64,000 bases of DNA from contig CP065011.1 of assembly GCA_016699795.1 (NCBI GenBank), forward strand, positions 947,449-1,011,448, read 5' to 3'. Origin of the DNA: Candidatus Moraniibacteriota bacterium (GTDB lineage: Bacteria > Patescibacteriota > Minisyncoccia > Moranbacterales > GCA-2747515). Positions 4,316-64,000 of the stretch are shown one piece after another. Within the stretch, counting starts at the first letter, position 1. Every line of letters begins with the position of its first letter. The notes beneath the pieces were generated by a model. The model had not been told where the DNA came from. It made no database searches and saw nothing but the letters and a program-made list of their open reading frames with translations. The translations under genes were made by a program, and so were the position numbers.

Positions 4316-6073
4316 GTGGTATACTGGGCATCTATGATATGGGAAATACAACCGTTCCACAGACAAGCACAGATTTTTGCCAAAGAACTTAATCTTGATG
4401 AGTTATTAGCACATCTCCTTTTAGCAAGAGGAATAGACTCGATACAAAAGGCAAATGATTTTTTGACTCCTGATTATGAAAAACATCTTCATGATCCTTT
4501 TTTATTTCCCGATCTCGCATCTATTGTAAGAAGAATAGAAAAGGCCATAAAGAAAAAAGAAAAAATAGGAGTGTTTGGTGACTATGATGCGGATGGCGTA
4601 ACGGGAAGCGCTGTTCTTCGTGAAGCATTGGAAGGTCTAGGCTTGGAAATAGTTGTTCATATTCCAGATAAACACAAAGAAGGACATGGTTTAAGTTATG
4701 AAGGAATACAAGTTTTTGAAGAAGCGGGAATAAAACTTTTTTTTACCGTTGATTGTGGTATTACCAATAAAGATGAAATCGCTTTTGCTAAGAAAAAAGG
4801 ATTAGATTGTATTGTTGTGGACCATCATCATGTTCCAGAAATTATGCCAGATGCTTTGGCTATAATTAATCCAAAAATTCCTCATTGTGGATATCCTTTT
4901 AATGGACTTTGCGGAGCAGGAACGGCCTTTAAAGTGGCGCAGGGACTTTATCAAAAACTTGCTCCAGAAAAGGAGGATCAATTGAAATGGCTTCTTGATA
5001 TTGTGGCTATAGGGACTGTCGCTGACTGTATGCCGATTATTGATGAAAATAGAATTTTTGTTCGATACGGTTCTGTTGTTCTTGCTAAAACTCGTCGAGT
5101 TGGACTTCGTGAGTTGTACACTGCAGGAAGAATACCTATAAATGATTCTAAACATCCTGATGCTATGATGATAGCTTTTCAGATTGCACCAAGGATTAAC
5201 GCTGCTGGACGCATGGCTCATGCACGTCTTGCTCATGATCTTTTAGTGGAAACTAATAAAGAAAGAGCTTATTCTTTAGCACAAGAATTGGAAAATCATA
5301 ATACCCAAAGGAAAAAATTGAGTGATAGAATTGTTAAAGATGTGCGTCAAAGAGCTAAGAATGAATTTGAAAAGAGGAATACTATTGTTGTTGCAGATAA
5401 AGAATATCCTTTGGGTATTGTGGGTTTGATCGCTGGGAAAATAGCCGAAGAATTCTCAAAACCCACAATAGTACTTGCAGAAAAGGAAGATGAAGATGTA
5501 TATCAAGGTTCTCTTCGGAGCTCTCAAGGGGTGAATCTTATGACGGTATTGGAAGAATGTTCGCATTTTTTGGAAAAATATGGAGGTCATGCTCAAGCTG
5601 CAGGACTTACTGTGAAAAAGGAAAATTTTAAAGTTTTTTCAGATCATTTTGAATTTGTGGTTACGAAAGAATTAGGAAAAGGAGAAAAATATGAAGAAAG
5701 GCTTATAGATGCTGAAATATTTTCTCAGCATATAACTTTGGAATTTTTAAAATATTTACATCAATTTTCACCTTTTGGAGAAGGGAATCCTGAGCCAATA
5801 TTTTTTATTCGAGATGTTCTTATTTCTGATGTTCGATTTTTGGGAAATAGCAATCAACACCTTAAATTAAAGATTCGTTTAGAAGGGGAGGCTTCTTGGC
5901 AAATAATTGATGCTATAGGATTTTCTCTTGGCGAGAAATTTTCGGATATTTCTGTGGGAGAAAAAATTCATCTTGTAGGAAGGCTTCGAGAAAATGAATG
6001 GAATGGGAAAATTTCAGTACAAATAACCATAGAGGACATTCGTCGATCAAATCAAGATGATACGAAATATTGA
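4316..6073 (+). CDS. recJ: Single-stranded-DNA-specific exonuclease RecJ (DHH/DHHA1)
   Basis: DHH-family motifs GDYDADGVTG, VVDHHH, GGHAQAAG; RecJ-like length and domain order. Confidence 0.88.
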   Translation: MVYWASMIWEIQPFHRQAQIFAKELNLDELLAHLLLARGIDSIQKANDFLTPDYEKHLHDPFLFPDLASIVRRIEKAIKKKEKIGVFGDYDADGVTGSAVLREALEGLGLEIVVHIPDKHKEGHGLSYEGIQVFEEAGIKLFFTVDCGITNKDEIAFAKKKGLDCIVVDHHHVPEIMPDALAIINPKIPHCGYPFNGLCGAGTAFKVAQGLYQKLAPEKEDQLKWLLDIVAIGTVADCMPIIDENRIFVRYGSVVLAKTRRVGLRELYTAGRIPINDSKHPDAMMIAFQIAPRINAAGRMAHARLAHDLLVETNKERAYSLAQELENHNTQRKKLSDRIVKDVRQRAKNEFEKRNTIVVADKEYPLGIVGLIAGKIAEEFSKPTIVLAEKEDEDVYQGSLRSSQGVNLMTVLEECSHFLEKYGGHAQAAGLTVKKENFKVFSDHFEFVVTKELGKGEKYEERLIDAEIFSQHITLEFLKYLHQFSPFGEGNPEPIFFIRDVLISDVRFLGNSNQHLKLKIRLEGEASWQIIDAIGFSLGEKFSDISVGEKIHLVGRLRENEWNGKISVQITIEDIRRSNQDDTKY

Positions 6074-26105: not shown

Positions 26106-29100
26106 ATGCTTCAAAACAATATACAAAAAATCTTTTTTTTTGGACTATTTCTTAGTATAGGATTCTTATCATTAGGAAATCATAAAGCTTTTGCAGCACT
26201 CTCTGTTTCAACACAAACAACAAGTGATGTTTCTTTTTATACTGCCACAGGAAATGGAACCATTTCTTCTTTAGATGACACCCTCCCTATTACAGAACAT
26301 GGTCACGTATGGTCAAAAGATCCAAATCCGGAACTTGGACCTGCCTCCACTCCTATAGCACAGTGGAAGATGAATGATAATGCTGGAAATACAACAGTGG
26401 TAGATTCTGTAGGAGGAAATAATGGAACAGCAGCAAGAAATACATCTCTCATGACAACACCAGGAAAAGTGAATGGTGCTTTGAATTTTAATGGGAGTAG
26501 CGACTCCATATCAATTCCTGCGGGCGTGACTTTGGCTGGAAAAAGTAAATTCACATTATCTCTTTGGATTAATCCAAGCGTTTATCCAAATAGTGGATTG
26601 GAAAAACCGATATACTATGAATCAACAAGTAATTCTGCTTATACAAGGGTGGGTTTAGTTCTTGATAGTAATGGAAAGATAATGTTGGGAGGTAGGGATT
26701 CATCTCAAGATCCAACGGGAGCTTATCAGGTATTTGTTCAAGGTAATGGCGTTATACCTCTAAACACATGGACTCATATTACAGCATCTTTTGATAGTGA
26801 TGCTGATGTTTTTACTCTTTATAAAAATGGTATTTTGGATGCAAATAGTACCACAAATCGATCAGCGCTCGGCTCAAGTGTTTCTGCTATAAGAAAGATT
26901 GGCACCTATCCTAACCAATTTTTTAATGGCTCTATTGATGACGTTCGCATCTATAATACCGCGCTCTCTGCGAGTGAGATTGCTCAGATATATAACTCTG
27001 GAAATGGTACTGAAGGGTCTTCAAAAACTCAACTCGGACCTCGCTCAACCACAGGAACATTCACTTCTTCTCTTACAGGACTTGATTTTTTAACTACCTA
27101 CCATACTCGTTCCTACGCAGTACTCTCCAATGGTTCTGAAGTGTATGGAGAAGATGATACCTTTACCACACTTATAGCTCCTTCTGAAACAAGAACATGG
27201 ACAGGAGCTCTTTCTTCAAGTTGGACAACTCCAGGGAATTGGGCAGAAGGTTCTGTGCCACGGTATATCGATAATGTAGTGATCAATGCAGGAACGAATC
27301 AACCTACACTCGATGTAAATGGTGGAACCATTACTATACAATCTCTTACTCTTGGAGGAGGAGCATCAACTTCTACTCTTACGCTTTCTTATGGATCGCC
27401 TACAAACAAATTTATTGTTACGGGGAATGTTACGATTCTTGATAAAGGATATCTTACTCACACTGCAAACACAACAACAGCTGCGGGAGAAGTTCATAGA
27501 CTCTTTATGGATATCGGTGGCAACTTGGATGTACAAACCGGAGGACAGATTAATGCGGATGGAAAGGGGTATCAAGCAGGTAATGGTCCAGGGTATTGTG
27601 CTACGAATGGATATTATTCTGGTTCTTATGGTGGCCAAGGTGATGGTGGAGTCTGTCCAACTTACGGCTCTCTCATAGATCCTGTAAATTTAGGGAGTGG
27701 CGGTTGGGGCGGTGTCGGTGGTGGTGCTGTTATCCTTACTATTTCTGGAGGCTCAATGATAAACGGAATGATTTCCGCAAGCGCAATTAGTAGCGGTGAT
27801 ATGCGATCATCGGGAGGAACTATAAACATTTCCTCAAATACGATAGCTGGTTCTTTTTTTATGAAAACAAATGGGGGTGGTAGTCCATACTATGGAGGAG
27901 GGGGTGGTCGTATTGCTGTTAAACTCATATCTGGAAATGATTTCGGATCGATTACGATGCAAGCATATGGTGGGCTAACTGGAGGCGCCGCCGGTACCAT
28001 CTACACCGAAACCGCCGACCAAGGATCTGGAAATGGAACGGTAATTATTGATAACAATAATATTACCTCATCACGTTTTGCCACTATCCCTTCCACCCAA
28101 ACCTGGACCATTAAAAATCTTGTCCTTCGTAACAAAGGACAAATCAGTGTCCCCACAGGAACGACTCTTAATCTTACCAATGCAACTATTACGAATGATG
28201 GACTCGGAACAAGTGGAATCAATGTAAATGGAGGAACACTAACTAACACAGGACTTTCTATAAATGGAATCTATCTTACTCTAACTGCGCCTCAAACTAT
28301 AAATGGAAATCTTTCTCTTGGAGGAGGATCTACAACATCTATACTTACTGTAAGTAATGGTTCCCCAACGAATAAATTCACTGTTACCGGAAATGTAACC
28401 ATTACTAACAACGGTTATCTCACCCACACAGCAAACACTACTGCAGAAACTCACAGACTCTTCATGGACGTAGGAGGGAATCTCGATGTCCAAGTAGGAG
28501 GACAGATTAATGTGGATGGAAAGGGGTATTCTGCTGGACCAGGATCAGGATTGGGCTTTTGGGGAGTGAGACAGGCCTCTTATGGTGGAATGGCATATGA
28601 TCTTAATCTTACATATGGATCTATTTTTAATCCTCTAGATTTAGGTAGTGGCCCCTCTTACTGTGGAGCGATTAAGGGTGGAGGCTCTGTCATTTTTACT
28701 GTTACTGAAGAAATAGTAATCAATGGTTTAATTTCTGCTAATGGAGCAAAAGATTCTTGTGGTGGGGGTTCTGGTGGAACTATTAATATATTAAGCAAAA
28801 TATTCTCTGGTTCAGGAGCTATTAGTTCAAATGGTGGAGGTATTTCTTATGGTGGTGCGGGAGGTGGTCGTATCGCCGTCAAACTCACATCAGGAAATGA
28901 TTTTGGGCTAGTTATTATGCAAGCTTTTGGAGGTGGAAATTCTTCTAATGATAATGGTGCTGCGGGGACAATCTATACCCAAACATCCTTACAAGGTATG
29001 GGCAATGGAACAATAACGATTGATAATAATAATGTTATAAACACAGCACGTAATCAAACCCTCATCCCCCAAGACAACTTCACCAACAACTCCCTCTCTC

Positions 29101-32100
29101 TCGGAAACATCATTGTAAAAAACAAAGGACTTCTTGCCATTCCTACAGGAACCACTCTTAACACTACAGGAGACATAACCATAGGAACTCTTAACTCTTC
29201 TACTGACACCTCACACATAGTAGCCAATGGAACAGGAACTCTCATTTCTACCAATCTCACTATTCATGGAGTAAGTGGTACAGGAGCATCCATAAACACC
29301 AACACGAAAGGTTACACTCCTACTCTTGGAACAGGAGCAGGAACAACAGGCTCTCTTGGATATGGATCAGGAGGAACATATGGAGGAAGAGGAGGAAATA
29401 GTAGTGATGGAGCAACTTCCCCTAACACCTATGGAAATGACTTTGTTCCCGAAGATCTTGGAAGTGGAGGAGGAAAGTCTACAGGAGGAACAGGAGGAGG
29501 AGATATACGAATCAGAACGAATAACAATCTCAACCTCTATGGAACCATATCCAGTAACGGTAGCGCTGGACTCACCAATGGTGGAGGAGGATCAGGAGGA
29601 TCTATAAACATACTCTATGCAAAAAACTTCACCATAAACGGTGGAAAGCTTCAAGCCAATGGTGGGGCGGGACAAGGTGGTGGAGGAGGAGGGGGAGGAG
29701 GAAGAATCGCCTATGCCTATGAAAACAAAACATTTACCAATCAAACGATTCAAACACTCGGAGGAACAAAAGGAGCTACCGCACCTGCAACTGATGGAAG
29801 CGCAGGTTCACTTAAATCTGGATACCTTGCTGGTTCTCTTATCTCTTCAGCATTTGATTCCAGTAGTGATGCTAATGTCATGGGAACAATAGAATGGAAA
29901 GAAAATGAAATACTCCCAGCAAATACAACCGTAACCATCTCTCTCAAAACTGCAGGAACGAAAGAAAATCTTTCTTCTTCCCCCTGGACACAACTTGCAC
30001 AGTCCACTGCTTCTTCTCTTACCTCAGGATGTACAAAGAATGGAATCAATGTTATCTGCTCTCTTTCTTCTATCCCTAATACTCTACGAGATACTATAGG
30101 AGATCGCTTCTTTCAATACAAAGTAGATCTTTCTTCTCCTGACCTTCTTTCTCAACCTCAAGTCGATGATGTAAGTGTTTCCTATGTTGTAAACGCTCCT
30201 CCTGAAATAGAATCAGTAAGTGCTTCTCAATCTACTCCCAATGATACCATTACCTTTACCTACAGTATTCAAGATATCGATACACAAACAGGAACCTATA
30301 CTCCCAACTACATCACTCCTACCTTTGAATATTCTCTTGATGATGGATCAAGCTGGCATACCATCTCTTCTTCATTCTTTACCTACAACAGCGCACCCTT
30401 TGGAGGAGATATTTCTGATCAAAACGCTGATACTATCATGGAGAATAAAGTTACCGATACCTACAAAACCTATTCCATTAATTGGAACGCTCAACAACAA
30501 CTCGGTCTTAATACACAAACAAACAATGTACGCATACGACTCACCATTACAGACAATGAAGCAGCAAACAATAACAAATTCCTTGTAAGTGATCCTTTTG
30601 GTATAGACACAAGACCTCTTACCTCCATTACCGTTTCTCAATCATACCAAGAAGCTACACTCGGACAGGTTCTCATTTCCTATGACTATGAGATTCAACC
30701 TACTATCCAAAACAATACAACACTCACTCTTGAATACTTCAATGGAAGTACATGGATAGAAGCAGTAAGTGTAACAGGGGATATCGGACTCAATGTATCT
30801 ACAGGAAACAAAAGTCTGGTATGGATTCCAAAAACAGATATCCCTGAACATTTCTCTTCTACCTCCAGAGTTCGACTCATCGCTTCGTATCAAGTTGCTT
30901 CATACACCATGACTTCAGTAAACTACACCCTCGATACAAAAACTCCCACCAATCCCTCCCTCCTTGTTGATGCTTCCACTCAAGACCTCACCATTCCCTC
31001 CACCACATCTGTTCTTACTCTTGGAGTCAGTGATGACTCTCCAACACAGATGAAGATTTCTCTTGACGAAAACCTTACCAACTCTCCTTGGGAACCTTTT
31101 AATGCAACGGTAACAATAAAACTCGAAACTGATCCCGACATTGTCTATACTCGCTTCAAAGATCAATACGGGAATGAAACACAAACCATACACACAACTA
31201 CTCCAGAAACTCCTACACGAGTCATTTCTCAAGATACGAGTAATATGCTTCTTACCCCTCCAGAATACCGAGCCTTCGTAGGATTCAAAACAATAGAAGA
31301 ACCTCCAACAGGATTCGGAAACTACAAACTCTATAGAAGTGATGACGCTACTACCTATACGCTTCAAAATATCATAACCTCAAGAACAACAAACTTCCTT
31401 ACTGATGCTACCCCACAACCAGACATTCTCTACACCTACAAAGCAAAGACAACAGACACACCAGGAAATGTTTCTTTCTTCTCACAAACCGTTACGATGA
31501 AAGCAAATGGTATTCAAGACTTCGGAGAAGGTGGAGGAGGATCAGATCAAACCCCTCCTGTTCTACAAAACGTAACCGTAGAATCTAAAGACACCACAAC
31601 CGTAACTATCACATGGGAAACAGATGAACTCTCTGACTCTCGTGTAGAATATGCAACCACTCCCAACACCTATACCAAACAAACAGGAGTCTCTACCTAT
31701 GCTGACACCCAAGCACAATCAGGACTTCATAGAGTCACTCTTACCAACCTCACACCAAACACTCCCTACTTCTTTAGAGTTGCCTCTACTGATCCTCAAG
31801 GCAATACCGGAGTCAATGACAATAATGGCAATGGATATGAAGTCACAACGAATCCTGGACCTTCTATCAGTGGTGTAGCGGTATCAAGTGCTTCTAACAC
31901 ACAAGCAACCATATTCTGGAATACGAATGTCCCTGCAGACTCTGTACTCCATTACAGTGAAAACAAGAATGGATCTCTTATCGATCCTATCACTCTCTCC
32001 GGATCAAGTGTTCTTACAAAAAATCATCAAGTAACCTTAGATGCTCTTACTCAAGGAACCACCTACTATTTCTACGTTACCTCCACCGACTCACAAGGAA

Positions 32101-33992
32101 ACATTGCCAATGACAATAATGGAGGAAACTATTTTCAATTCTCTACAACACTCGACGAAACACCTCCTACCATAACGAATCTTCAAACATCTCTTATCTC
32201 AAATGACAAAGCAGTTATTACAGCAAACACAGATGAAGAAGCATCCTTCCTCCTTCAGTACAGAAAAAAAGGAAGCCTTACCTTCACACAAACAGAACAA
32301 GGAACAACATACGATAGATCTCACTACAGGGTACTCGATACTCTTACTCCTGATACAGAGTATGAATATCAAGTGAGTGTTAAAGATATCAATCAAAACG
32401 AATCACAGAGTGATATACAAACAATGAAAACAACCTTAGATCCAGAATACAATCATGCACCTCTTTCAAAGATTCATACTATCAGTGATCCTCCTAAAGT
32501 ACTCACTGATCAAAAAGCAGTCATAACCTTCCAGACGGATCAAGCAGCAAACTGCATCCTTGAATATGGAACCCAATCAAGAAACTACCAAGAAGTTCCT
32601 CAAACAGAAGCGACAGGAATCTATGACACACTCCATTCCCTGCATCTTGGAGGACTCATCTTTAACACAACCTACTTCTACAAACTTCTTTGTGAAGATA
32701 ATCTTGGAACCCTCATAGAGAGTGAAGAAAAAAGCTTCACAACAAAACTCAAACAAGTAGACAGTGGAAGTGAACAAGCAGAATCTACTCCTCCCTCTAT
32801 CTCAGGAGTCAAAGTCAAAGACATTACAGGAGAGAGTGCAGTGGTGAGTTGGGAGACGGATGAAGTTTCAAACTCACAGGTGAGATATGGGACGACGAAG
32901 GAGACTCTTCAATTTGGTGGTGACAGTCTTGTCAACTTCGACCCCACCAAATACACCACCTCCCACTCCGTAACTCTTCGAGGTCTCATCCCATCTACTA
33001 AATACTTCTTCTCCACAGGATCTTCCGACACCGCCGGAAACATAGGCACCTCCTCCCAACAAACCTTCCAAACGCAATCTCCTTCTTCCATCTCTTCCAT
33101 TAAAGCTTCTTCCAAACAAATAGGGGAAACAACTATCACATGGAAAACTTCCACTCCCACTACCTCTATTGTTGAATATGGAAACACAGAAAACTATGGA
33201 CAAACAAGAAAAAGTGAAGAACTCAAAAAAGATCATGAAATTATCATAAACAATCTTTTAGAAAACTCTACCTACCACTTCCGAGTAAAAGGAGAAGATG
33301 AATCAAAAAATCTCTTCTCTTCTTCCGACTCTACCTTTGAACCAAAGTCTCCACCACAAATCAAAGAAATCAAGATAGAAGTTCTTTCAGACAGAGAAGC
33401 AAAAGTAAACTTCCTTACTGATACTCTTACCGACTCTCTTGTAACCTACAAAAACAAAAACAAAGAAGAAGATCAAAAGAGTGAAGGAAATCCCTCCCTC
33501 CTCCAAACTCACTCCCTCACCCTCAAAGAACTCACTCCTGGAGAAAACTACGTTCTTACTGTACGAGTCAGAGATGATATGGGAAATGAAACTCTCTCTG
33601 ATGAGATAGAATTCACTATGCAAAAAGATGAAACTTCTCCTACAGTAGAAAGAGTCTCTACCGACTCCGCTCTTTCACAAAACGGAAAAGTACAAATGAT
33701 TATTAACTGGCAAACAGATGAAGATGCTTCTTCCTCCCTCATCTACAAAGAAGGAAGAGCAGGAGAAGAAAAAACAGTGAATGTAAGTTCTTCCCCAACA
33801 AAGAATCACATCATTGTACTCACCTCTTGGAAACCAGGAACTCTCTACTCTTACAAAGTCATAGTAAAAGATCTGAGTGGGAATGAAACCATAACCAAAG
33901 ACTACATCACCCTTACACCACAAACAAAAGAATCTGTTGTAGAACTCATCATAAAGAACTTCAAAGAAATCTTTGCTTGGACGGGAGGGTAG
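26106..33992 (+). CDS. Giant secreted multidomain surface protein (2628 aa): signal peptide, LamG/concanavalin-like domain, two beta-helix-like Gly-rich repeat blocks, then about 9-10 fibronectin-III-like domains
   Basis: N-terminal signal peptide; LamG-like segment (LSLWINPSVYPN...FNGSIDDVRIYNTALS); duplicated block ...TLGGGASTSTLTLSYGSPTNKF.VTGNVTI...GYLTHTANTT...HRLFMD.GGNLDVQ.GGQIN.DGKGY at about 27340-27580 and 28310-28540; repeated TxTWxTDExSxSxVxYG...Y.F.V units from about 31500. Confidence 0.85.
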   Translation: MLQNNIQKIFFFGLFLSIGFLSLGNHKAFAALSVSTQTTSDVSFYTATGNGTISSLDDTLPITEHGHVWSKDPNPELGPASTPIAQWKMNDNAGNTTVVDSVGGNNGTAARNTSLMTTPGKVNGALNFNGSSDSISIPAGVTLAGKSKFTLSLWINPSVYPNSGLEKPIYYESTSNSAYTRVGLVLDSNGKIMLGGRDSSQDPTGAYQVFVQGNGVIPLNTWTHITASFDSDADVFTLYKNGILDANSTTNRSALGSSVSAIRKIGTYPNQFFNGSIDDVRIYNTALSASEIAQIYNSGNGTEGSSKTQLGPRSTTGTFTSSLTGLDFLTTYHTRSYAVLSNGSEVYGEDDTFTTLIAPSETRTWTGALSSSWTTPGNWAEGSVPRYIDNVVINAGTNQPTLDVNGGTITIQSLTLGGGASTSTLTLSYGSPTNKFIVTGNVTILDKGYLTHTANTTTAAGEVHRLFMDIGGNLDVQTGGQINADGKGYQAGNGPGYCATNGYYSGSYGGQGDGGVCPTYGSLIDPVNLGSGGWGGVGGGAVILTISGGSMINGMISASAISSGDMRSSGGTINISSNTIAGSFFMKTNGGGSPYYGGGGGRIAVKLISGNDFGSITMQAYGGLTGGAAGTIYTETADQGSGNGTVIIDNNNITSSRFATIPSTQTWTIKNLVLRNKGQISVPTGTTLNLTNATITNDGLGTSGINVNGGTLTNTGLSINGIYLTLTAPQTINGNLSLGGGSTTSILTVSNGSPTNKFTVTGNVTITNNGYLTHTANTTAETHRLFMDVGGNLDVQVGGQINVDGKGYSAGPGSGLGFWGVRQASYGGMAYDLNLTYGSIFNPLDLGSGPSYCGAIKGGGSVIFTVTEEIVINGLISANGAKDSCGGGSGGTINILSKIFSGSGAISSNGGGISYGGAGGGRIAVKLTSGNDFGLVIMQAFGGGNSSNDNGAAGTIYTQTSLQGMGNGTITIDNNNVINTARNQTLIPQDNFTNNSLSLGNIIVKNKGLLAIPTGTTLNTTGDITIGTLNSSTDTSHIVANGTGTLISTNLTIHGVSGTGASINTNTKGYTPTLGTGAGTTGSLGYGSGGTYGGRGGNSSDGATSPNTYGNDFVPEDLGSGGGKSTGGTGGGDIRIRTNNNLNLYGTISSNGSAGLTNGGGGSGGSINILYAKNFTINGGKLQANGGAGQGGGGGGGGGRIAYAYENKTFTNQTIQTLGGTKGATAPATDGSAGSLKSGYLAGSLISSAFDSSSDANVMGTIEWKENEILPANTTVTISLKTAGTKENLSSSPWTQLAQSTASSLTSGCTKNGINVICSLSSIPNTLRDTIGDRFFQYKVDLSSPDLLSQPQVDDVSVSYVVNAPPEIESVSASQSTPNDTITFTYSIQDIDTQTGTYTPNYITPTFEYSLDDGSSWHTISSSFFTYNSAPFGGDISDQNADTIMENKVTDTYKTYSINWNAQQQLGLNTQTNNVRIRLTITDNEAANNNKFLVSDPFGIDTRPLTSITVSQSYQEATLGQVLISYDYEIQPTIQNNTTLTLEYFNGSTWIEAVSVTGDIGLNVSTGNKSLVWIPKTDIPEHFSSTSRVRLIASYQVASYTMTSVNYTLDTKTPTNPSLLVDASTQDLTIPSTTSVLTLGVSDDSPTQMKISLDENLTNSPWEPFNATVTIKLETDPDIVYTRFKDQYGNETQTIHTTTPETPTRVISQDTSNMLLTPPEYRAFVGFKTIEEPPTGFGNYKLYRSDDATTYTLQNIITSRTTNFLTDATPQPDILYTYKAKTTDTPGNVSFFSQTVTMKANGIQDFGEGGGGSDQTPPVLQNVTVESKDTTTVTITWETDELSDSRVEYATTPNTYTKQTGVSTYADTQAQSGLHRVTLTNLTPNTPYFFRVASTDPQGNTGVNDNNGNGYEVTTNPGPSISGVAVSSASNTQATIFWNTNVPADSVLHYSENKNGSLIDPITLSGSSVLTKNHQVTLDALTQGTTYYFYVTSTDSQGNIANDNNGGNYFQFSTTLDETPPTITNLQTSLISNDKAVITANTDEEASFLLQYRKKGSLTFTQTEQGTTYDRSHYRVLDTLTPDTEYEYQVSVKDINQNESQSDIQTMKTTLDPEYNHAPLSKIHTISDPPKVLTDQKAVITFQTDQAANCILEYGTQSRNYQEVPQTEATGIYDTLHSLHLGGLIFNTTYFYKLLCEDNLGTLIESEEKSFTTKLKQVDSGSEQAESTPPSISGVKVKDITGESAVVSWETDEVSNSQVRYGTTKETLQFGGDSLVNFDPTKYTTSHSVTLRGLIPSTKYFFSTGSSDTAGNIGTSSQQTFQTQSPSSISSIKASSKQIGETTITWKTSTPTTSIVEYGNTENYGQTRKSEELKKDHEIIINNLLENSTYHFRVKGEDESKNLFSSSDSTFEPKSPPQIKEIKIEVLSDREAKVNFLTDTLTDSLVTYKNKNKEEDQKSEGNPSLLQTHSLTLKELTPGENYVLTVRVRDDMGNETLSDEIEFTMQKDETSPTVERVSTDSALSQNGKVQMIINWQTDEDASSSLIYKEGRAGEEKTVNVSSSPTKNHIIVLTSWKPGTLYSYKVIVKDLSGNETITKDYITLTPQTKESVVELIIKNFKEIFAWTGG

Positions 33993-47823: not shown

Positions 47824-47949
47824 ATATGAAAAACCGATTTTATTTTTTCCTTTGGCGAAAATGAAGATTTTTTGTTTTGAGGACTTTTTAAGTATTCCTT
47901 ATTGGTCACGAAATTTTCAAATTTTTGGAGGAAATAATTTTTTAGAGAG

Positions 47950-48023
47950 TACCAGAGGTGAGATTTGAACTCACGACCCCAGGCTTATGAGTCCTGTGCT
48001 CTAACCAACTGAGCTACCCTGGC
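47950..48023 (-). tRNA. tRNA with anticodon CAT, elongator-type (Met; Ile2/lysidine cannot be excluded)
   Basis: Reverse complement GCCAGGGTAGCTCAGTTGGTTAGAGCACAGGACTCATAAGCCTGGGGTCGTGAGTTCAAATCTCACCTCTGGTA folds as a cloverleaf: D stem GCTC/GAGC, T stem GTGAG/CTCAC, TTCAAAT loop, U33-CAU-A37; pyrimidine11-purine24. Confidence 0.8.
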
Positions 48024-48039
48024 AAAATTTTAAGAATAG

Positions 48040-48113
48040 TTGCGGGGGTAGGATTCGAACCTACGACCTGGTGGTTATGAGCCACCCGAGCTGCCTGACT
48101 GCTCTACCCCGCA
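48040..48113 (-). tRNA. tRNA with anticodon CAT, initiator-like (fMet)
   Basis: Reverse complement TGCGGGGTAGAGCAGTCAGGCAGCTCGGGTGGCTCATAACCACCAGGTCGTAGGTTCGAATCCTACCCCCGCAA; perfect stems; A11:U24 pair in the D stem, an initiator hallmark; weak 1:72 pair (U-A); two G-C pairs at the base of the anticodon stem. Confidence 0.75.
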
Positions 48114-59959: not shown

Positions 59960-61894
59960 ATGAAAAAAATACACTGGTGGAGAATACTATGCGTTAGCGT
60001 TTTCTTTTTCTTTGGGATGCCTTTACTTGTTTGGGCCAAGTCATATACATATGAAAGTATTGATGTTGATATTGATATAAACAAAGACGCAACGATCCTT
60101 GTAAGAGAAAAGCAGGTATTTCAATTTTCTGGAGAATTTCATAAAGGCTATCGAGAAATTATCCTCAATGGAACAGACGCTATTCGAGATATAGCTGTCT
60201 ATGATGAGAGAGGGGTAAATCTTTCGTACCAAAAAAATCTTTCGCAAGAATACATACCTGGACTTGAAGGAAACTATAACTACCAAAAATCTGGAGGTTT
60301 TATGAAAATTTGGTGGTTTTTTGATGCACAAGATGAAACAAAAACATTCACTCTAGAATATACCGTCGTTGGCGCCCTTTCTTTTTTCGATGATAAAGAC
60401 GAATTGTATTGGAATATTCTTACCGATTATGATGTCGCTATTGCTTCTTCTACGGTACAAATCTCTCTTCCTGAAGAAAGTGAAATGAACACACTAAAAA
60501 TAAAAGAATACCTTCAAGGGGATGAAAGTTCTTTCTCAGAAATTCTCAATGAAAAAACAGCTCTTGCCAGTGCAACACAGCTTCAATCGGGGGCAGATTT
60601 TACCGTAGCTTTCGGATTTCCTCGGGGAATCATTGATCGTGGAGCTTATTGGGAAAGTCTCTTTTCTTTATACTGGGGATATATTCTCGGTGTTCTTATT
60701 TGGCTTATTACTCTTATTTTCTGTCTTGGATATTGGTATATGAGTGAAAAATACAATAAAGGACGAGGGACGATCATCGCCGAATACGAGCCTCCTCATC
60801 ATTTACCTCCAGCAATAGGAGAAGTTATTATGAAAGAGAAAATTTCTTCTAAGACATGGGCGTCTACCATTATAGATCTCGCTGTTCGTGGACATGTAAA
60901 AATAGAAGAAGAACCTGTACAAGCATGGATGAAATATCTTATCTTTCTTCCAGGAATAATCGGTGCTTTTTTCGTGGGGCAAATTATTTTTGTCATGATG
61001 CCTACAGAAGATGTTTTTCTGAAAATCTTGGCATTGTGTGTGTTTATAGGTATAGGAGTTATTTCTTTTACAAAAGATAAGAATAAGGGGAGATTTGAGA
61101 AAAAAGAATATAAACTTTTTCTCATAAAAGATAACGCGAAAGACATATTACGCCCATTTGAAAAAGAATTTCTCTCGGTGCTTTTTTCTGGAAGGGCTGG
61201 TGTGTTTTCAACTCGAGAAATTAAGAAAGAAGATGAACTTAAGCGACAAATGATGTATAGAAAATTTCAAGCTCTCCAAAAAAGTTTTTTTGATGAAGTG
61301 GCTCAGCTCGGTTTTCATAACCATTCCCTTAAGAAAGAATCATATGGAAAAACAGGACTTATATTTTTCTTTTTCGGTCTTTTTTTCCTCTCTTCCTTTA
61401 TAGGTTTTTGGGGATCGTGGCATTTCTTGATAGCTACTCTTTTGGGGGCATCTGCTCTTATTTCATACTTCATTTGGTTTGAAGTGAAACTCACGCCAGA
61501 AGGAAATGAAGAAAAAGAGAAATGGTTAGGATTTAAAGAATTTCTCTACAAAACAGAACGGTATCGTGTCCAAGAACTTACACCTGACATGTTTTATACA
61601 CTTCTTCCATACGCTATGATTTTTGGTATAGAGAGGCAATGGGCGAAACGTTTCGAAGGTATCGTGGTGAACAATCCTGATTGGCATACATCCCCAACAA
61701 TGTCTACCTCGGGGAGCTCTTCTTTTGTTTCGTCTGGATCTGTAGGAGCTTTTTCCGCGGGGGCGTTCTCCGCATCACTTAGCTCAAGTTTTTCATCAGC
61801 TTTTGCAAGTTCATCAGGCTCTTCAGGTGGAGCTTCTGGTGGGGGAGGATCAGCAGGTGGTGGAGGTGGAGGAGGTGGCGGTGGCGCTAGTTAA
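59960..61894 (+). CDS. DUF2207-like membrane protein with a C-terminal Gly/Ser-rich tail
   Basis: Signal peptide, about 230-aa extracytoplasmic domain, TM segments, C-terminal SSGSSGGASGGGGSAGGGGGGGGGGAS encoded by a GGN repeat tract (about 61810-61890). Confidence 0.5.
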   Translation: MKKIHWWRILCVSVFFFFGMPLLVWAKSYTYESIDVDIDINKDATILVREKQVFQFSGEFHKGYREIILNGTDAIRDIAVYDERGVNLSYQKNLSQEYIPGLEGNYNYQKSGGFMKIWWFFDAQDETKTFTLEYTVVGALSFFDDKDELYWNILTDYDVAIASSTVQISLPEESEMNTLKIKEYLQGDESSFSEILNEKTALASATQLQSGADFTVAFGFPRGIIDRGAYWESLFSLYWGYILGVLIWLITLIFCLGYWYMSEKYNKGRGTIIAEYEPPHHLPPAIGEVIMKEKISSKTWASTIIDLAVRGHVKIEEEPVQAWMKYLIFLPGIIGAFFVGQIIFVMMPTEDVFLKILALCVFIGIGVISFTKDKNKGRFEKKEYKLFLIKDNAKDILRPFEKEFLSVLFSGRAGVFSTREIKKEDELKRQMMYRKFQALQKSFFDEVAQLGFHNHSLKKESYGKTGLIFFFFGLFFLSSFIGFWGSWHFLIATLLGASALISYFIWFEVKLTPEGNEEKEKWLGFKEFLYKTERYRVQELTPDMFYTLLPYAMIFGIERQWAKRFEGIVVNNPDWHTSPTMSTSGSSSFVSSGSVGAFSAGAFSASLSSSFSSAFASSSGSSGGASGGGGSAGGGGGGGGGGAS

Positions 61895-62006
61895 AAATTA
61901 TATTTCTATTTTTCCTCTGATTTCATTCGAGAGATCACCCTCTTCATTTTTCCGTTATTTCGAGTAAGTGAGGCGAACCGAGAAATCTCTCCGAATTTGA
62001 AAAACT

Positions 62007-62049
62007 AAGAAAATCCCTCTCTACCTCTCCCTTTTCCTAAGGGAGAGAA
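62007..62049. repeat. 43-bp direct repeat copy A with embedded hairpin ctctccc-N9-gggagag
   Basis: aagaaaatccctctctacctctcccttttcctaagggagagaa; the second copy at 63339-63380 differs at one base. Confidence 0.8.
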
Positions 62050-62149
62050 GTAGAGTGAAAAATATTGCATTACTGACCAAAATAGTACATATTTACGTCA
62101 GTATACTAACCAGAAAAATGAGATTTGAATTTTTACATGCAAAGAAAGT

Positions 62150-62983
62150 ATGGATCGCAATTTTTTAATTACTAAAGAATACCAATCTTTTATAGAAAAG
62201 ATAAAAGAGGGTGTACAACGAGCGAGAAATAAAGCCATTCGGAGTATAAATAGTGAGCTTATTAGCCTTTATTATTTTATCGGAAAGCAAATTGTAGAAA
62301 AACAAAAAAAATCAAATTGGGGTGAAGATTTTATTGGACAGATTGAAGCTGATTTGAAAAGAATTTTTCCCGAATTAAGAGGTTTTTCTCGTCGAAATCT
62401 CAATTATATGAGAAGTTTGTATATTTTCTTTGGAAAAAATGCAAAAATGCCACAGCTTGTGGCACAAATTCCTTGGGGACATATCCGGCTTATTTTAGAT
62501 AAAATTAGAGATAAAAAAGAAGCTGAATTTTATATACAAAAGACTATTGAAAATTCTTGGTCTCGGGTTATTCTTGATCATCAGATTTCTTTGAATCTGT
62601 ATCAACGACAGGGTACGCTTGTAAGTAATTTTGATTCTACGATTAATGATCGAAATATAACTCTTATCAAAGAATCTTTTAAGGAGAATTATGTTTTGGA
62701 TTTTTTGAACTTGGAAGAATCCGCCAAAGAGCGTGATCTTGAGAATGCTCTTATTAAGAATATTACAAACTTTGTTCTTGAATTGGGTAAAGGATTCGCC
62801 TTTGTCGGCAAACAACATAAACTGGTCTTCTCTCCCTTTGCCAAAAGAGTATTACGAGTTTTTCCCTCCCTCTTCTCTCCCTTTGCCAAAAGGGAGTACC
62901 CGAGTCATCGAGGGGGAGGGATTTGTATTCCAGACATCATACTTAAGTCCCAAGAAAATCCACAAAAGTATGCGTCAATATGA
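62150..62983 (+). pseudogene. DUF1016 (YhcG-like) PD-(D/E)XK-family nuclease, C-terminal catalytic region replaced by repeat-derived sequence
   Basis: The N-terminal region matches the DUF1016 pattern (...NSELISLYYFIGKQI...WGEDFIGQIEADLKRIFPELRGFSRRNLNYMRSLY... GKGFAFVGKQHKL). It then runs into FSPFAKR-FSPFAKR, encoded by a duplicated ctctccctttgccaaaag element, and terminates without the (D/E)xK core. Confidence 0.5.
62827..62925. repeat. Cluster of short REP/MITE-like hairpin repeats inside the DUF1016 gene (2x cttctctccctttgccaaaag(g); inverted ccctccctc / gagggggaggg)
   Basis: The core ctctcccttt(g/t)cc(a/t)aa(a/g)gggag is related to the hairpin in the 43-bp flanking repeats. Confidence 0.6.
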
Positions 62984-63332
62984 TTCAAATCTCAATCAAA
63001 TAGCCAGAAAACTGAGAAAATCTATGACAGAGGCAGAGGTAAGAATGTGGCAAAGATTGAGAAAAAAACAAGTTTGTAATATTCAATTTTTTAGACAAAA
63101 AATTATTGGAAATTATATCGTTGATTTTATCGCACCATTAATACATCTTGTTATTGAAATAGACGGAGGGGGACATTTCGAAAAAGGACAGCTCATAAAG
63201 AAAGATCGTGTTCGTGAAGTTTATTTAAAGCAAAAAAATCTCTCGATTCTTCGATTTACAAATACAGAAGTGATGCAAAATATAGATGGAGTTTTTATAA
63301 GTATTTATAAGTTTATTGAGAGTAGGAATTAA
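62970..63332 (+). CDS. DUF559 (Vsr-like) endonuclease-domain protein
   Basis: MTEAEVRMWQRLRKKQ...FRRQKIIGNYIVDFIAPLIHLVIEIDGGGH...LSILRFTNTEV matches the DUF559 pattern (LW..LR....G.KFRRQ..IG.YI.DF.C....L.IE.DG..H...VLRF.N.EV); the start is the in-frame ATG at 62970. Confidence 0.65.
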   Translation: MRQYDSNLNQIARKLRKSMTEAEVRMWQRLRKKQVCNIQFFRQKIIGNYIVDFIAPLIHLVIEIDGGGHFEKGQLIKKDRVREVYLKQKNLSILRFTNTEVMQNIDGVFISIYKFIESRN

Positions 63333-63338
63333 ACTCCA

Positions 63339-63380
63339 AGAAAATCCCTCTCCACCTCTCCCTTTTCCTAAGGGAGAGAA
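63339..63380. repeat. 43-bp direct repeat copy B
   Basis: aagaaaatccctctccacctctcccttttcctaagggagagaa. Confidence 0.8.
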
Positions 63381-63621
63381 AAATACACCTTCTTATTATC
63401 CCTGTATCATTTTCTGTCCAGCCAAAGGCTGATCAACGTCTTCGCCTTGCCATCCTTGCGGAGGTGGGGAGTCAGCTTAATCAAAAATTCCTCTCGAGAA
63501 AATTAGCCCTCTATGAGACAAAAGCTAGATATTCTTAGGAATGTATTGTGCTTTTTCTTTCAAATTTTGACATCCCTTAGTATATTACATATATTCTTTA
63601 ATAAGAGCCAAATATATATTT

Positions 63622-64000
63622 GTGAAACAGCTTTCCACTCGAACAATTTCTTTCATCTCTCTCATTGCTATTGCCTTTCTAGCATTAGGAATTTTTGCAA
63701 TGCAAAGAGTTTACAATACTCCTCTTCCTATTGTGGAGAATAAGAAAACAGAGACTCAAGAAAAGAATGAAGAGAACATACTTGAAACTACTATTGATAC
63801 ATTGAATTGGAAAACTTTTCGAAATGAAGAATACGGATTCGAAATGCAAATTCCTAGTGATTGGGGGATAAATAAAGACACCTATCCTTTTCCTCCCGGC
63901 ATAGGAGGGGAATGGTTTACTGCGGAACCTATTGATCGTGTAGATAATGGAAAGTTACGATTTACCGTTGCTGTTTTTAACTCTACGGAAAACCCAATAA
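63622..64000 (+). CDS. Partial ORF (3' end outside window): signal-anchored protein, GTG start
   Basis: Open to the window end with no stop; N-terminal TM ISFISLIAIAFLALGIFAM; no RBS seen, so the call is weak. Confidence 0.3.
   Translation, partial: MKQLSTRTISFISLIAIAFLALGIFAMQRVYNTPLPIVENKKTETQEKNEENILETTIDTLNWKTFRNEEYGFEMQIPSDWGINKDTYPFPPGIGGEWFTAEPIDRVDNGKLRFTVAVFNSTENPI

Follow-up and report, generated by a model that had tools for sequence, protein, structure and literature searches.

Triplex-motif-type repeats bracket a DUF559 nuclease gene beside a truncated YhcG gene in Candidatus Moraniibacteriota, and accompany DUF559 genes in other lineages

RAYT (TnpA_REP) is encoded by a single-copy gene lying between inverted short palindromic repeats, which are dispersed elsewhere in pairs and clusters (REP/BIME). 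Another group of repeats, the BoxC and PIT elements, was reportedly the subject of earlier work by Bachellier and by Hoyne and Maher in 2000; these motifs have been known in Escherichia coli and in hundreds of genomes since the 1990s, and no function, partner protein or route of spread has been found for them. Here we describe a locus of Candidatus Moraniibacteriota (positions 61900-63650 of a 64-kb stretch of DNA, called the window in what follows) where a small nuclease gene of the DUF559 family is bracketed by repeats which, judging from their design, belong to this second group, next to what is left of a YhcG/DUF1016 gene. DUF559 is a large orphan family that includes E. coli YcjD and a Neisseria protein of solved structure.

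The small GIY-YIG nucleases named Ssn are encoded by genes that lie between hairpin repeats (NTS/SRM), further copies of which are scattered over the genome. Ssn cuts its own flanking repeats specifically, as single-stranded DNA, and its authors, who make no mention of DUF559 or Vsr, liken the architecture to insertion sequences and to RAYT/REP (Chenal et al. 2025, PMC11893778). The former BoxC and PIT elements have been described as intrastrand triplex motifs (TM) by Holder et al. (2015, PMC4666352). Found in more than 260 genomes, the motif has 23 copies in MG1655, five as inverted pairs; the TM_ECO consensus is CCCTCNCCC-N3-6-GGGNGAGGG-N3-GGGNGAGGG, where the second loop is TTA or CCG. The purine strand of TM_ECO forms a stable triplex in vitro by circular dichroism and nuclear magnetic resonance, the complementary strand being the pyrimidine-motif version. 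Motif-bearing loci were more rearranged among strains than control sites, and no partner gene, mobility gene or mobility function was identified (PMC4666352).

By analogy with these systems, we infer that the repeats have their cognate nuclease in the DUF559 protein. We lean, with modest confidence, towards reading the locus as a module of a nuclease and its cognate repeats, comparable with Ssn/NTS and RAYT/REP, by which the YhcG locus would have been rearranged.

The DUF559 nuclease and its inverted three-tract units

The window protein matches Pfam DUF559 (PF04480) over positions 2-108 of 109 (E 8e-30, 103 bits against a cut-off of 20.6), in agreement with an earlier note on this DNA that had called the gene intact. 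The same scan gave an additional weak match to MTES_1575 and none to GIY-YIG. An NCBI protein of a Candidatus Moraniibacteriota metagenome-assembled genome has exactly the same sequence. The DUF559 profile matches the Neisseria 'endonuclease-like protein' (PDB 3HRL, E 9e-34) and I-Bth0305I (3R3P, E 8e-4), and the family is indeed large, with 18,696 representatives at 50% identity matching at E <= 1e-3 and 5,581 at E <= 1e-10. The Vsr clan of PD-(D/E)XK nucleases takes in both DUF559 and the intron homing endonuclease I-Bth0305I (PMC3424549). D52, E63, D65 and H69, which are invariant across 24 DUF559 homologues including the window protein, are the putative catalytic residues, as the fold family suggests. 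Many database DUF559 entries are extended at the N- or C-terminus by read-through of repeat sequence (P0005, P0013, P0032 and P0034), for example STPNPSFKKGGEP and SPSPLSPPIKGGE. Such spurious tails arise in public annotation, be it as PSP..GEG-type DUF559 tails or in the 277-aa 'DUF1016 family protein' of the present locus.

The DUF559 gene is bracketed by inverted copies of one repeat unit, the third tracts of which are turned toward the gene. In the T1 orientation the unit reads AAAT, a first pyrimidine tract (Py1), a linker, a second pyrimidine tract (Py2), a loop and a purine tract (Pu); T2, its reverse complement, reads Py, loop, Pu2, linker, Pu3 and ATTT. Because a perfect hairpin reads alike on both strands, unit orientation was taken from the third tract. 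On the right side of the gene stands the T1 unit LU2, the inverted partner of the left flanking unit; a further T1 unit, LU1, lies upstream of YhcG (Table 1). In the DNA fold, whose energy model covers Watson-Crick pairs only, LU1 and LU2 have the same 9-bp hairpin stem, CTCTCCCTT/AAGGGAGAG, and their minus strands show the three blocks of the triplex motif, CTCTCCCTT-loop-AAGGGAGAG-GTA/GTG-GAGAGGG-ATTT. Py1 of LU1 is the exact mirror of the stem arm, so that its minus strand, Py-loop-GGGAGAG-GTA-GAGAGGG-ATTT, has the TM design of PMC4666352; in LU2 the minus strand GGGAGAG-GTG-GAGAGGG is a perfect mirror over 7 positions. In the left unit GAGGG mirrors GGGAG, over 5 positions only. As for the limits used by ITxF (loops of 1-6 nt, stems of 6-15 nt), LU1 and LU2 have a first loop of 5 nt, a second of 3 nt and stems of 7-9 nt, and the left unit (62877-62920) has a second loop of 13 nt. 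The earlier note had taken the repeats for plain hairpins, which they are not: they are three-tract units and, on the strength of this design, members of the BoxC/PIT/TM intrastrand triplex family.

Association and polarity of the repeats across lineages

Orthologues of the DUF559 gene (68-77% identity) were found on three contigs (L001-L003), in three distinct neighbourhoods, each amid arrays of related hairpin units on both sides. In all four Moranbacteria DUF559 loci GGGATTTGTAT is invariant 35-55 nt 5′ of the start codon, and AAATCCCyCTC..CTCTCCCTTTTCC.AAGGGAGAG lies 3′ of the stop codon; the left-unit subtype with a 12-13-nt linker (TACCCGAGTCNTC) is also present in L001 and L157. On L001, a direct repeat of about 115 nt (4355-4470 and 5177-5290), built from the final 12 nt of the DUF559 open reading frame (ORF) and the triplex-motif units that come after it, surrounds an unrelated 102-aa ORF (4657-4965) with no Pfam match, in the same repeat-foreign gene-repeat pattern as between LU1 and LU2.

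The association was looked at from both sides. The protein-side sample comprised 80 metagenome loci (40-55% identity), obtained with the 24-protein DUF559 profile and thus blind to the repeats; they are the best-scoring relatives of one DUF559 subfamily (IGNYIVDF...IEIDG). A hairpin was scored when it had a perfect stem of at least 6 bp with an all-pyrimidine 5′ arm, a definition which decayed units escape. Such pyrimidine-first hairpins occur within 150 nt of DUF559 in 71 of the 80 loci, their density being about 5.5 per kb near the gene versus about 0.2 per kb more than 500 nt away, and purine-first hairpins are ten times rarer. Among the 63 loci with enough flanking sequence, hairpins are found on both sides in 33, on one side in 22 and on neither in 8, hence on at least one side in 55/63. 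Long direct repeats common to both flanks were detected in 20/71 loci versus 1/71 in a reversed-sequence control, and several of these DUF559 genes lie within long tandem arrays.

For the repeat-side sample we searched genome contigs with the bare hairpin pattern (120 matches listed, the source genome not among them). Among these listed matches, DUF559 adjoins the hairpin (0-70 nt, ORF analysis) in at least 11 genome loci and is the only recurrent hairpin neighbour, with a cluster of 10 loci versus 3 for the next largest. The DUF559 loci selected in this way belong to Peribacteria, Verrucomicrobiota (including Ca. Udaeobacter) and, within Chloroflexota, Dehalococcoidales, Chloroflexia and Anaerolineae. 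In viral contigs a scan detected single hairpins at 26 loci, none of them close to a DUF559 gene. Individual genomes, mostly of cultured organisms, agree with this to varying degrees: the plasmid of Pseudanabaena ABRG5-3 has a T2 unit 5′ of DUF559 and a T1 unit immediately after its stop codon, in Azospirillum brasilense a T2 unit directly precedes the gene, and Deinococcus, Synechocystis and Picosynechococcus carry hairpin or triplex units in both DUF559 flanks. In Neisseria gonorrhoeae the units are on the downstream side only.

The repeats therefore belong to the DUF559 gene and not to YhcG; none of six intact YhcG loci from relatives contains such hairpins. The link between this DUF559 subfamily and the repeats is tight, polar and phylogenetically broad, extending over at least six phyla. 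DUF559 could in principle be just a frequent passenger, if recombinogenic triplex motifs gather in variable islands and the YhcG truncation is an ordinary deletion at unstable DNA. This fits with the rearrangement-prone character of the E. coli TM loci, with the content of the region 3′ of DUF2207, a variable island that holds AbiE and other accessory genes in relatives, and with the L001 units that flank an unrelated ORF. We nevertheless regard such hitch-hiking as unlikely, since DUF559 is the sole recurrent hairpin neighbour (10-11 of the 120 matches listed), the units are placed precisely and with a polarity, the third tract being turned to the gene and the unit often taking in the stop codon, and the pattern is kept across phyla and in cultured organisms. 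The bracketing of DUF559 in so many lineages rather points, by analogy, to the nuclease as an enzyme acting on the repeats.

The polarity appears most clearly in the tract statistics, for which only the gene-nearest hairpin of each side was used, mirror-symmetric stems being excluded. A third tract matching the stem is present on the gene-proximal side of the hairpin in 37/49 upstream and 33/49 downstream cases, and on the distal side in 5/49 and 6/49, respectively. On the proximal side mirror order prevails over direct copy by 44:9 (sign test p = 1.2e-6); the distal ratio is 22:23. The perfect mirror is kept across 17 different stem sequences, and the linker is exactly 3 nt long in 26/46 upstream and 26/36 downstream units (52/82 overall). 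In 46/63 loci the unit closest to the gene on the upstream side has the T2 form; downstream, the closest unit is of the T1 form in 43/64. Finally, the purine tract ends at a median of 20 nt 5′ of the start codon and the pyrimidine tract starts at a median of 3.5 nt 3′ of the stop.

A mirrored tract is unable to pair with the stem arm in antiparallel Watson-Crick fashion, for which reason such pairing was rejected as an explanation of the third tract, and we know of no copying mechanism that yields mirror order. The mirror covariation thus suggests that selection acts on a non-Watson-Crick structure or on the way a protein recognises it.

Other explanations of the units were also tried and set aside. 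A CRISPR-like array was rejected, there being no unique spacers and no cas genes. The same holds for intrinsic terminators, as the stems lack a subsequent T-run and the flanks are inverted relative to each other, and for a G-quadruplex, as each unit has two G-runs only and the A positions covary.

The fixed distances to the ORF also fit another view, in which the repeats are cis-acting elements for DUF559 expression (transcript stabilisers, transcription blocks or an autoregulation operator) located in its 5′ and 3′ untranslated regions, with no role as nuclease substrate or in mobility. In keeping with it, a promoter and terminator consensus scan, which is not decisive for this phylum, found no convincing sigma-70-like promoter specific to DUF559 and no terminator at the hairpins. 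However, because the flanks are inverted, the two ends of the DUF559 transcript would differ, one having the purine-motif version and one the pyrimidine version; moreover, long arrays and gene-less inverted pairs lie far from any DUF559 gene, the stems are not followed by a T-run, and PIT elements had neither promoter nor terminator activity in E. coli (PMC4666352). This view consequently seems rather improbable to us.

The gene-less pairs are best documented in E. coli, where, according to the table in PMC4666352, the third tracts face each other across 16-27 nt in four of the five inverted pairs. Since this polarity equals that found around DUF559, the facing pairs look like gene-less versions of the DUF559 module. 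On contig L171, the junction GGGATTTGTATTTTTAAATCCCCC is repeated in an array with the same facing-tract layout, again as a gene-less inverted pair. The only DUF559 gene of MG1655 is ycjD (NC_000913.3 1351407-1351760, minus strand; L240), and TM_ECO no. 9 (1351204-1351239) is located 168 nt 3′ of it on the same strand. The chance of a motif in a given 400-nt neighbourhood is about 0.002 (18 motif loci in 4.64 Mb). A decayed pyrimidine/purine hairpin is found at the ycjD end, and a partial duplicate of the last ~40 nt of ycjD lies between the stop codon and TM_ECO no. 9. The fabI-ycjD-sapF arrangement is complete in 3,346/5,426 complete genomes, and the sampled genomes that do not have it match on the fabI side only; in one ycjD-less genome examined, the sapF-fabI site is occupied by the eefRABCD efflux operon (L240 versus L249). 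A 2026 paper (PMC12817139) describes the site as being taken by either ycjD or eef and reports two or more losses of eef, an alternation which is consistent with replacement events at such modules.

The YhcG remnant and the layout of the locus

The locus sits 3′ of a DUF2207 membrane protein gene (59960-61894; Pfam). In 5′ to 3′ order it consists of LU1, the YhcG/DUF1016 ORF, two mini-repeats, a purine tract followed by ATTTGTATT (62910-62929), a 19-nt partial LU start, DUF559 and LU2 (Table 1). The motif CTCTCCCTTTKCCWAARGGGAG, at up to 3 mismatches, has 4 matches in the window, all at this locus, where shuffled sequences lead one to expect 0.01; one of them is the degenerate unit SU1, at 3 mismatches, of which L003 holds 3-4 tandem copies. 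Likewise, the three perfect pyrimidine-arm hairpins of the whole window all fall within the nuclease locus.

Table 1. Features of the nuclease locus, in window coordinates, with the parts of the repeat units
Feature	Position	Strand	Parts	Basis
LU1, triplex-motif unit in T1 orientation, upstream direct-repeat copy	62000..62049	+	AAAT; Py1 CCCTCTC (62015-62021); linker TAC; CTCTCCCTT (62025-62033); loop; AAGGGAGAG (62039-62047)	direct repeat, hairpin search, DNA fold
Truncated YhcG/DUF1016 gene	62150..62827	+	full N-terminal domain and first third of PD-(D/E)XK domain	Pfam, tblastn, DNA alignment, PADLOC
SU1, degenerate repeat unit, 3′ stem arm decayed, abutting the YhcG breakpoint	62826..62851	+	TCTTCTCTCCCTTTGCCAAAAGAGTA	first 22 nt = 62871-62892
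Repeat-derived tail of annotated 277-aa 'DUF1016 family protein'	62828..62983	+		translation; YhcG homology stops at about codon 226
Left flanking unit of DUF559, T2 orientation	62863..62929	+	outer Py CCCTCCCTC; hairpin CTCCCTTT-gcca-AAAGGGAG (62877-62896); 13-nt linker TACCCGAGTCATC; purine tract GAGGGGGAGGG (62910-62920); ATTTGTATT	hairpin and nested outer stem in DNA fold
Partial T1 unit, copy of stop-codon region and LU2 start, 8 nt 5′ of DUF559 start codon	62943..62961	+	TTAAGTCCCAAGAAAATCC	84% identity to 63329-63347
DUF559 nuclease gene (YcjD-like, Vsr-fold PD-(D/E)XK), intact, 120 aa	62970..63332	+		Pfam DUF559
LU2, right flanking unit in T1 orientation, beginning inside DUF559 stop codon; downstream direct-repeat copy	63331..63380	+	AAAT; Py1 CCCTCTC (63346-63352); linker CAC; CTCTCCCTT (63356-63364); loop; AAGGGAGAG (63370-63378)	direct repeat, hairpin search, DNA fold

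All the elements that the earlier note had read from the letters are there, with small changes of coordinates. The two direct repeats that it gave as 43 bp long, each with the hairpin CTCTCCC-N9-GGGAGAG, extend to 50 nt (62000-62049 and 63331-63380, 92% identity), and their 43-nt core (62007-62049 and 63338-63380) has a single-base difference, the second copy starting at 63338, one position before the start given. The inverted pair CCCTCCCTC / GAGGGGGAGGG forms the outer stem of the left unit in the DNA fold, and the short element translated twice as FSPFAKR in the tail of the ORF corresponds to TCTTCTCTCCCTTTGCCAAAAG, which is present in two identical 22-nt copies (62826-62847 and 62871-62892). 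The proposal of a dispersed REP-like family also proved right: the repeats are abundant elsewhere, their window copies being at this locus only. A duplication or a recombination event could have left the 19-nt repeat at 62943 and 63329. Rfam gave no family at gathering thresholds in the window and nine related loci, nor at permissive E-values at the locus, and no intron.

That the DUF1016/YhcG gene has lost its catalytic C-terminus, as the same note had suggested, is established by alignment to intact homologues, which are 336 aa long and up to 77% identical. The ORF at 62150-62983 has a complete DUF1016_N domain (1-137/137, E 8e-42) and positions 2-55/157 only of YhcG_C (Pfam), and it matches the candidate defence system PDC-S02 of PADLOC (E 6e-82). 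Homology is thus strong from the N-terminal domain into the first part of the nuclease domain, and it ends at about nt 62826-62828 (about codon 226), precisely where the first mini-repeat starts, both by tblastn and by DNA alignment with two intact genes. The ~110 C-terminal residues that are absent, which include the catalytic core, have no match anywhere in the 64-kb window (tblastn), and the last 50 codons of the annotated 277-aa protein (NCBI P0067) are translated repeat sequence. As the catalytic part is absent, this YhcG copy is, judged from its sequence, a pseudogene or a nuclease-dead remnant of a PDC-S02-type candidate defence gene.

The earlier note had further supposed that the repeats either rearranged a nuclease locus or bound a small mobile or defence cassette. 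The first part agrees with the truncation of YhcG exactly at the start of a repeat; the second does not stand, as the repeats go with DUF559. Indeed, if the 1.38-kb segment between the 50-nt repeats, YhcG remnant and DUF559 together, were one cassette, the 92% identity of the repeats and their position around both nuclease genes would be accounted for, and L001 offers a comparable direct-repeat pair around a foreign ORF. But no second YhcG-DUF559 pairing was found among the DUF559 and YhcG loci of relatives that we examined, the YhcG genes of relatives are intact and repeat-free while that of the window is without its catalytic domain, and the unit conserved across lineages is repeat-DUF559-repeat alone. 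We hold a joint cassette to be very unlikely. Since the units around DUF559 are inverted copies, the direct repeat of 50 nt is of secondary rank.

The YhcG-repeat junction could also be a chimeric join made at short repeats during assembly, the real genome having an intact YhcG. The source is a metagenome-assembled genome and the junction falls exactly at a repeated 22-mer. Against this, the contig is 1,186,598 bp long, the repeats of 22-50 nt are below typical read size, the absent part of YhcG is nowhere in the window, and equivalent repeat-DUF559 layouts are present in many independent assemblies and in finished genomes. An artefact is in our opinion extremely unlikely.

Several other features of the window were noticed. 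Just 3′ of LU2, the stretch 63400-63470 (cagccaaaggctgatcaacgtcttcgccttgccatccttgcggaggtggggagtcagc) is apparently G+C-richer by eye. It has neither an Rfam match nor an ORF of at least 30 aa, and may be what is left of the sequence that was replaced. The C-terminus of the DUF2207 protein (61800-61891) is a long Ser/Gly tail (…SSGSSGGASGGGGSAGGGGGGGGGGAS) derived from a 9-nt tandem repeat of the GGTGGAGG type, a tail shared with the orthologue on contig L236, from a Moranbacteria relative (GCA_036681025.1). A tandem pair of tRNA-Met (CAT) genes, 15 nt apart, occupies 47949-48113 on the minus strand, and one ORF of 2,628 aa spans 26106-33992.

A proposed mechanism and the comparison with known systems

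How could such a module work? The DUF559 module sits in the variable island 3′ of the DUF2207 gene, its left repeat array taking the place of the 3′ third of YhcG/DUF1016, and a further repeat copy upstream of YhcG gives rise to the 50-nt direct repeat. In the scheme that we propose, the DUF559 nuclease would recognise the folded unit, hairpin and third tract together, probably on transiently single-stranded DNA, and would nick beside it. Repair or recombination at these nicks could then multiply the units into arrays, yield gene-less inverted pairs and copy the DUF559 gene between repeat sites, and deletions or replacements could occur there, which would explain the missing 3′ end of YhcG.

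A bolder extension, to which we give somewhat less than an even chance, is that the YcjD-type DUF559 proteins are the long-missing partner enzymes of the BoxC/PIT repeats. They would be small Vsr-fold nickases reading a folded structure and not a sequence, and repeat-gene-repeat would be a selfish or domesticated element that spreads the repeats, makes the gene-less pairs and drives rearrangements, including the loss of the YhcG 3′ end and the replacement of eef by ycjD.

A number of observations weigh against the module and its mechanism. The left unit of the window, with its 13-nt linker, can fold as a nested hairpin instead (DNA fold), and about 10-13% of the DUF559 loci are without a perfect hairpin. 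Several stem sequences share a locus (CTCTCCC, TCCCTC, TCCCCC and CCTCC in L001 and L002), so that recognition, if any, would be structural rather than sequence-specific. Within the window the repeats are confined to this one locus. We found no empty site: the DUF2207 orthologues (77% and 59% identity) have different downstream genes, synteny breaking exactly here. Of the 23 motif copies of E. coli K-12, only one is near ycjD, in a non-canonical position, and in vivo footprinting by Holder et al. did not detect the triplex (PMC4666352). The binding or cleavage of the repeats by DUF559 that we suggest is, for its part, deduced from genomic association.

A full-text literature search, in which subscription journals were thinly covered, returned no paper linking DUF559 or YcjD to these repeats. 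Their linkage gives both the orphan family and the orphan motif a hypothesis testable in a model organism, namely that YcjD acts on TM_ECO. If this is true, DUF559 could be a structure-specific, triplex-recognising nuclease useful as a tool.

Compared with the systems described so far, the window DUF559 protein shares its fold family with Vsr, I-Bth0305I and the 3HRL protein, and its setting is different from theirs. Vsr nicks T:G mismatches in Dcm sites, whereas the window locus is without a methyltransferase partner; the I-Bth0305I gene lies inside a group I intron, which Rfam does not find at the window locus or at the nine related loci.

With the BoxC/PIT/TM elements the window units have in common a pyrimidine arm, a loop, a purine arm, a short second loop (typically 3 nt, often TTA) and a mirrored purine tract, the pyrimidine version being on the complementary strand, as well as C/G-rich stems, an intergenic position, the occurrence of inverted pairs and local rearrangement. 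They differ by their stems (CTCTCCC and others, versus CCCTCNCCC) and by the bracketing of DUF559 with fixed polarity that is seen here. The 13-nt second loop of the left unit is outside the range of ITxF, and the triplex is known for the TM_ECO sequence, the window units being candidates by design.

RAYT/REP resembles the DUF559 module in that inverted repeat copies surround an enzyme gene and the repeats are dispersed. However, RAYT is a relative of HUH/Y1 transposases, whereas between the window repeats the YhcG remnant and DUF559 are the only sizeable ORFs with family matches, and a REP is a simple imperfect palindrome that has no mirrored third tract. Among the features of insertion sequences and miniature inverted-repeat transposable elements, inverted terminal units and gene-less inverted pairs (L171, E. 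coli) are seen, and a recognised transposase is not.

On contig L236 (5150-5990), a 95-aa GIY-YIG gene (5423-5710) lies between hairpin repeats of a different kind, GGATCCCCACCTTCGTGGGGAA and TCCCCCGCGTAGGCGGGGGTCCA. This arrangement looks like the Ssn/SRM pair of PMC11893778, and the Moranbacteria lineage may hold two unrelated nuclease-plus-repeat systems.

The closest parallel is Ssn/NTS. In both cases a small single-domain nuclease gene lies between short hairpin repeats, which in the window flank DUF559 on either side (62877-62920 and 63346-63378). In both, the repeats are dispersed in the genome, a non-palindromic flank gives them an orientation, and the architecture is reminiscent of an insertion sequence. 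The nucleases are nevertheless of different families, GIY-YIG for Ssn and Vsr-type PD-(D/E)XK for DUF559, and the repeats are unrelated in sequence and design; cleavage of the repeats is demonstrated for Ssn and predicted for DUF559. If our reading is true, DUF559 and its triplex-motif units would join RAYT/REP and Ssn/NTS as a third nuclease-plus-cognate-repeat system, of independent evolutionary origin.

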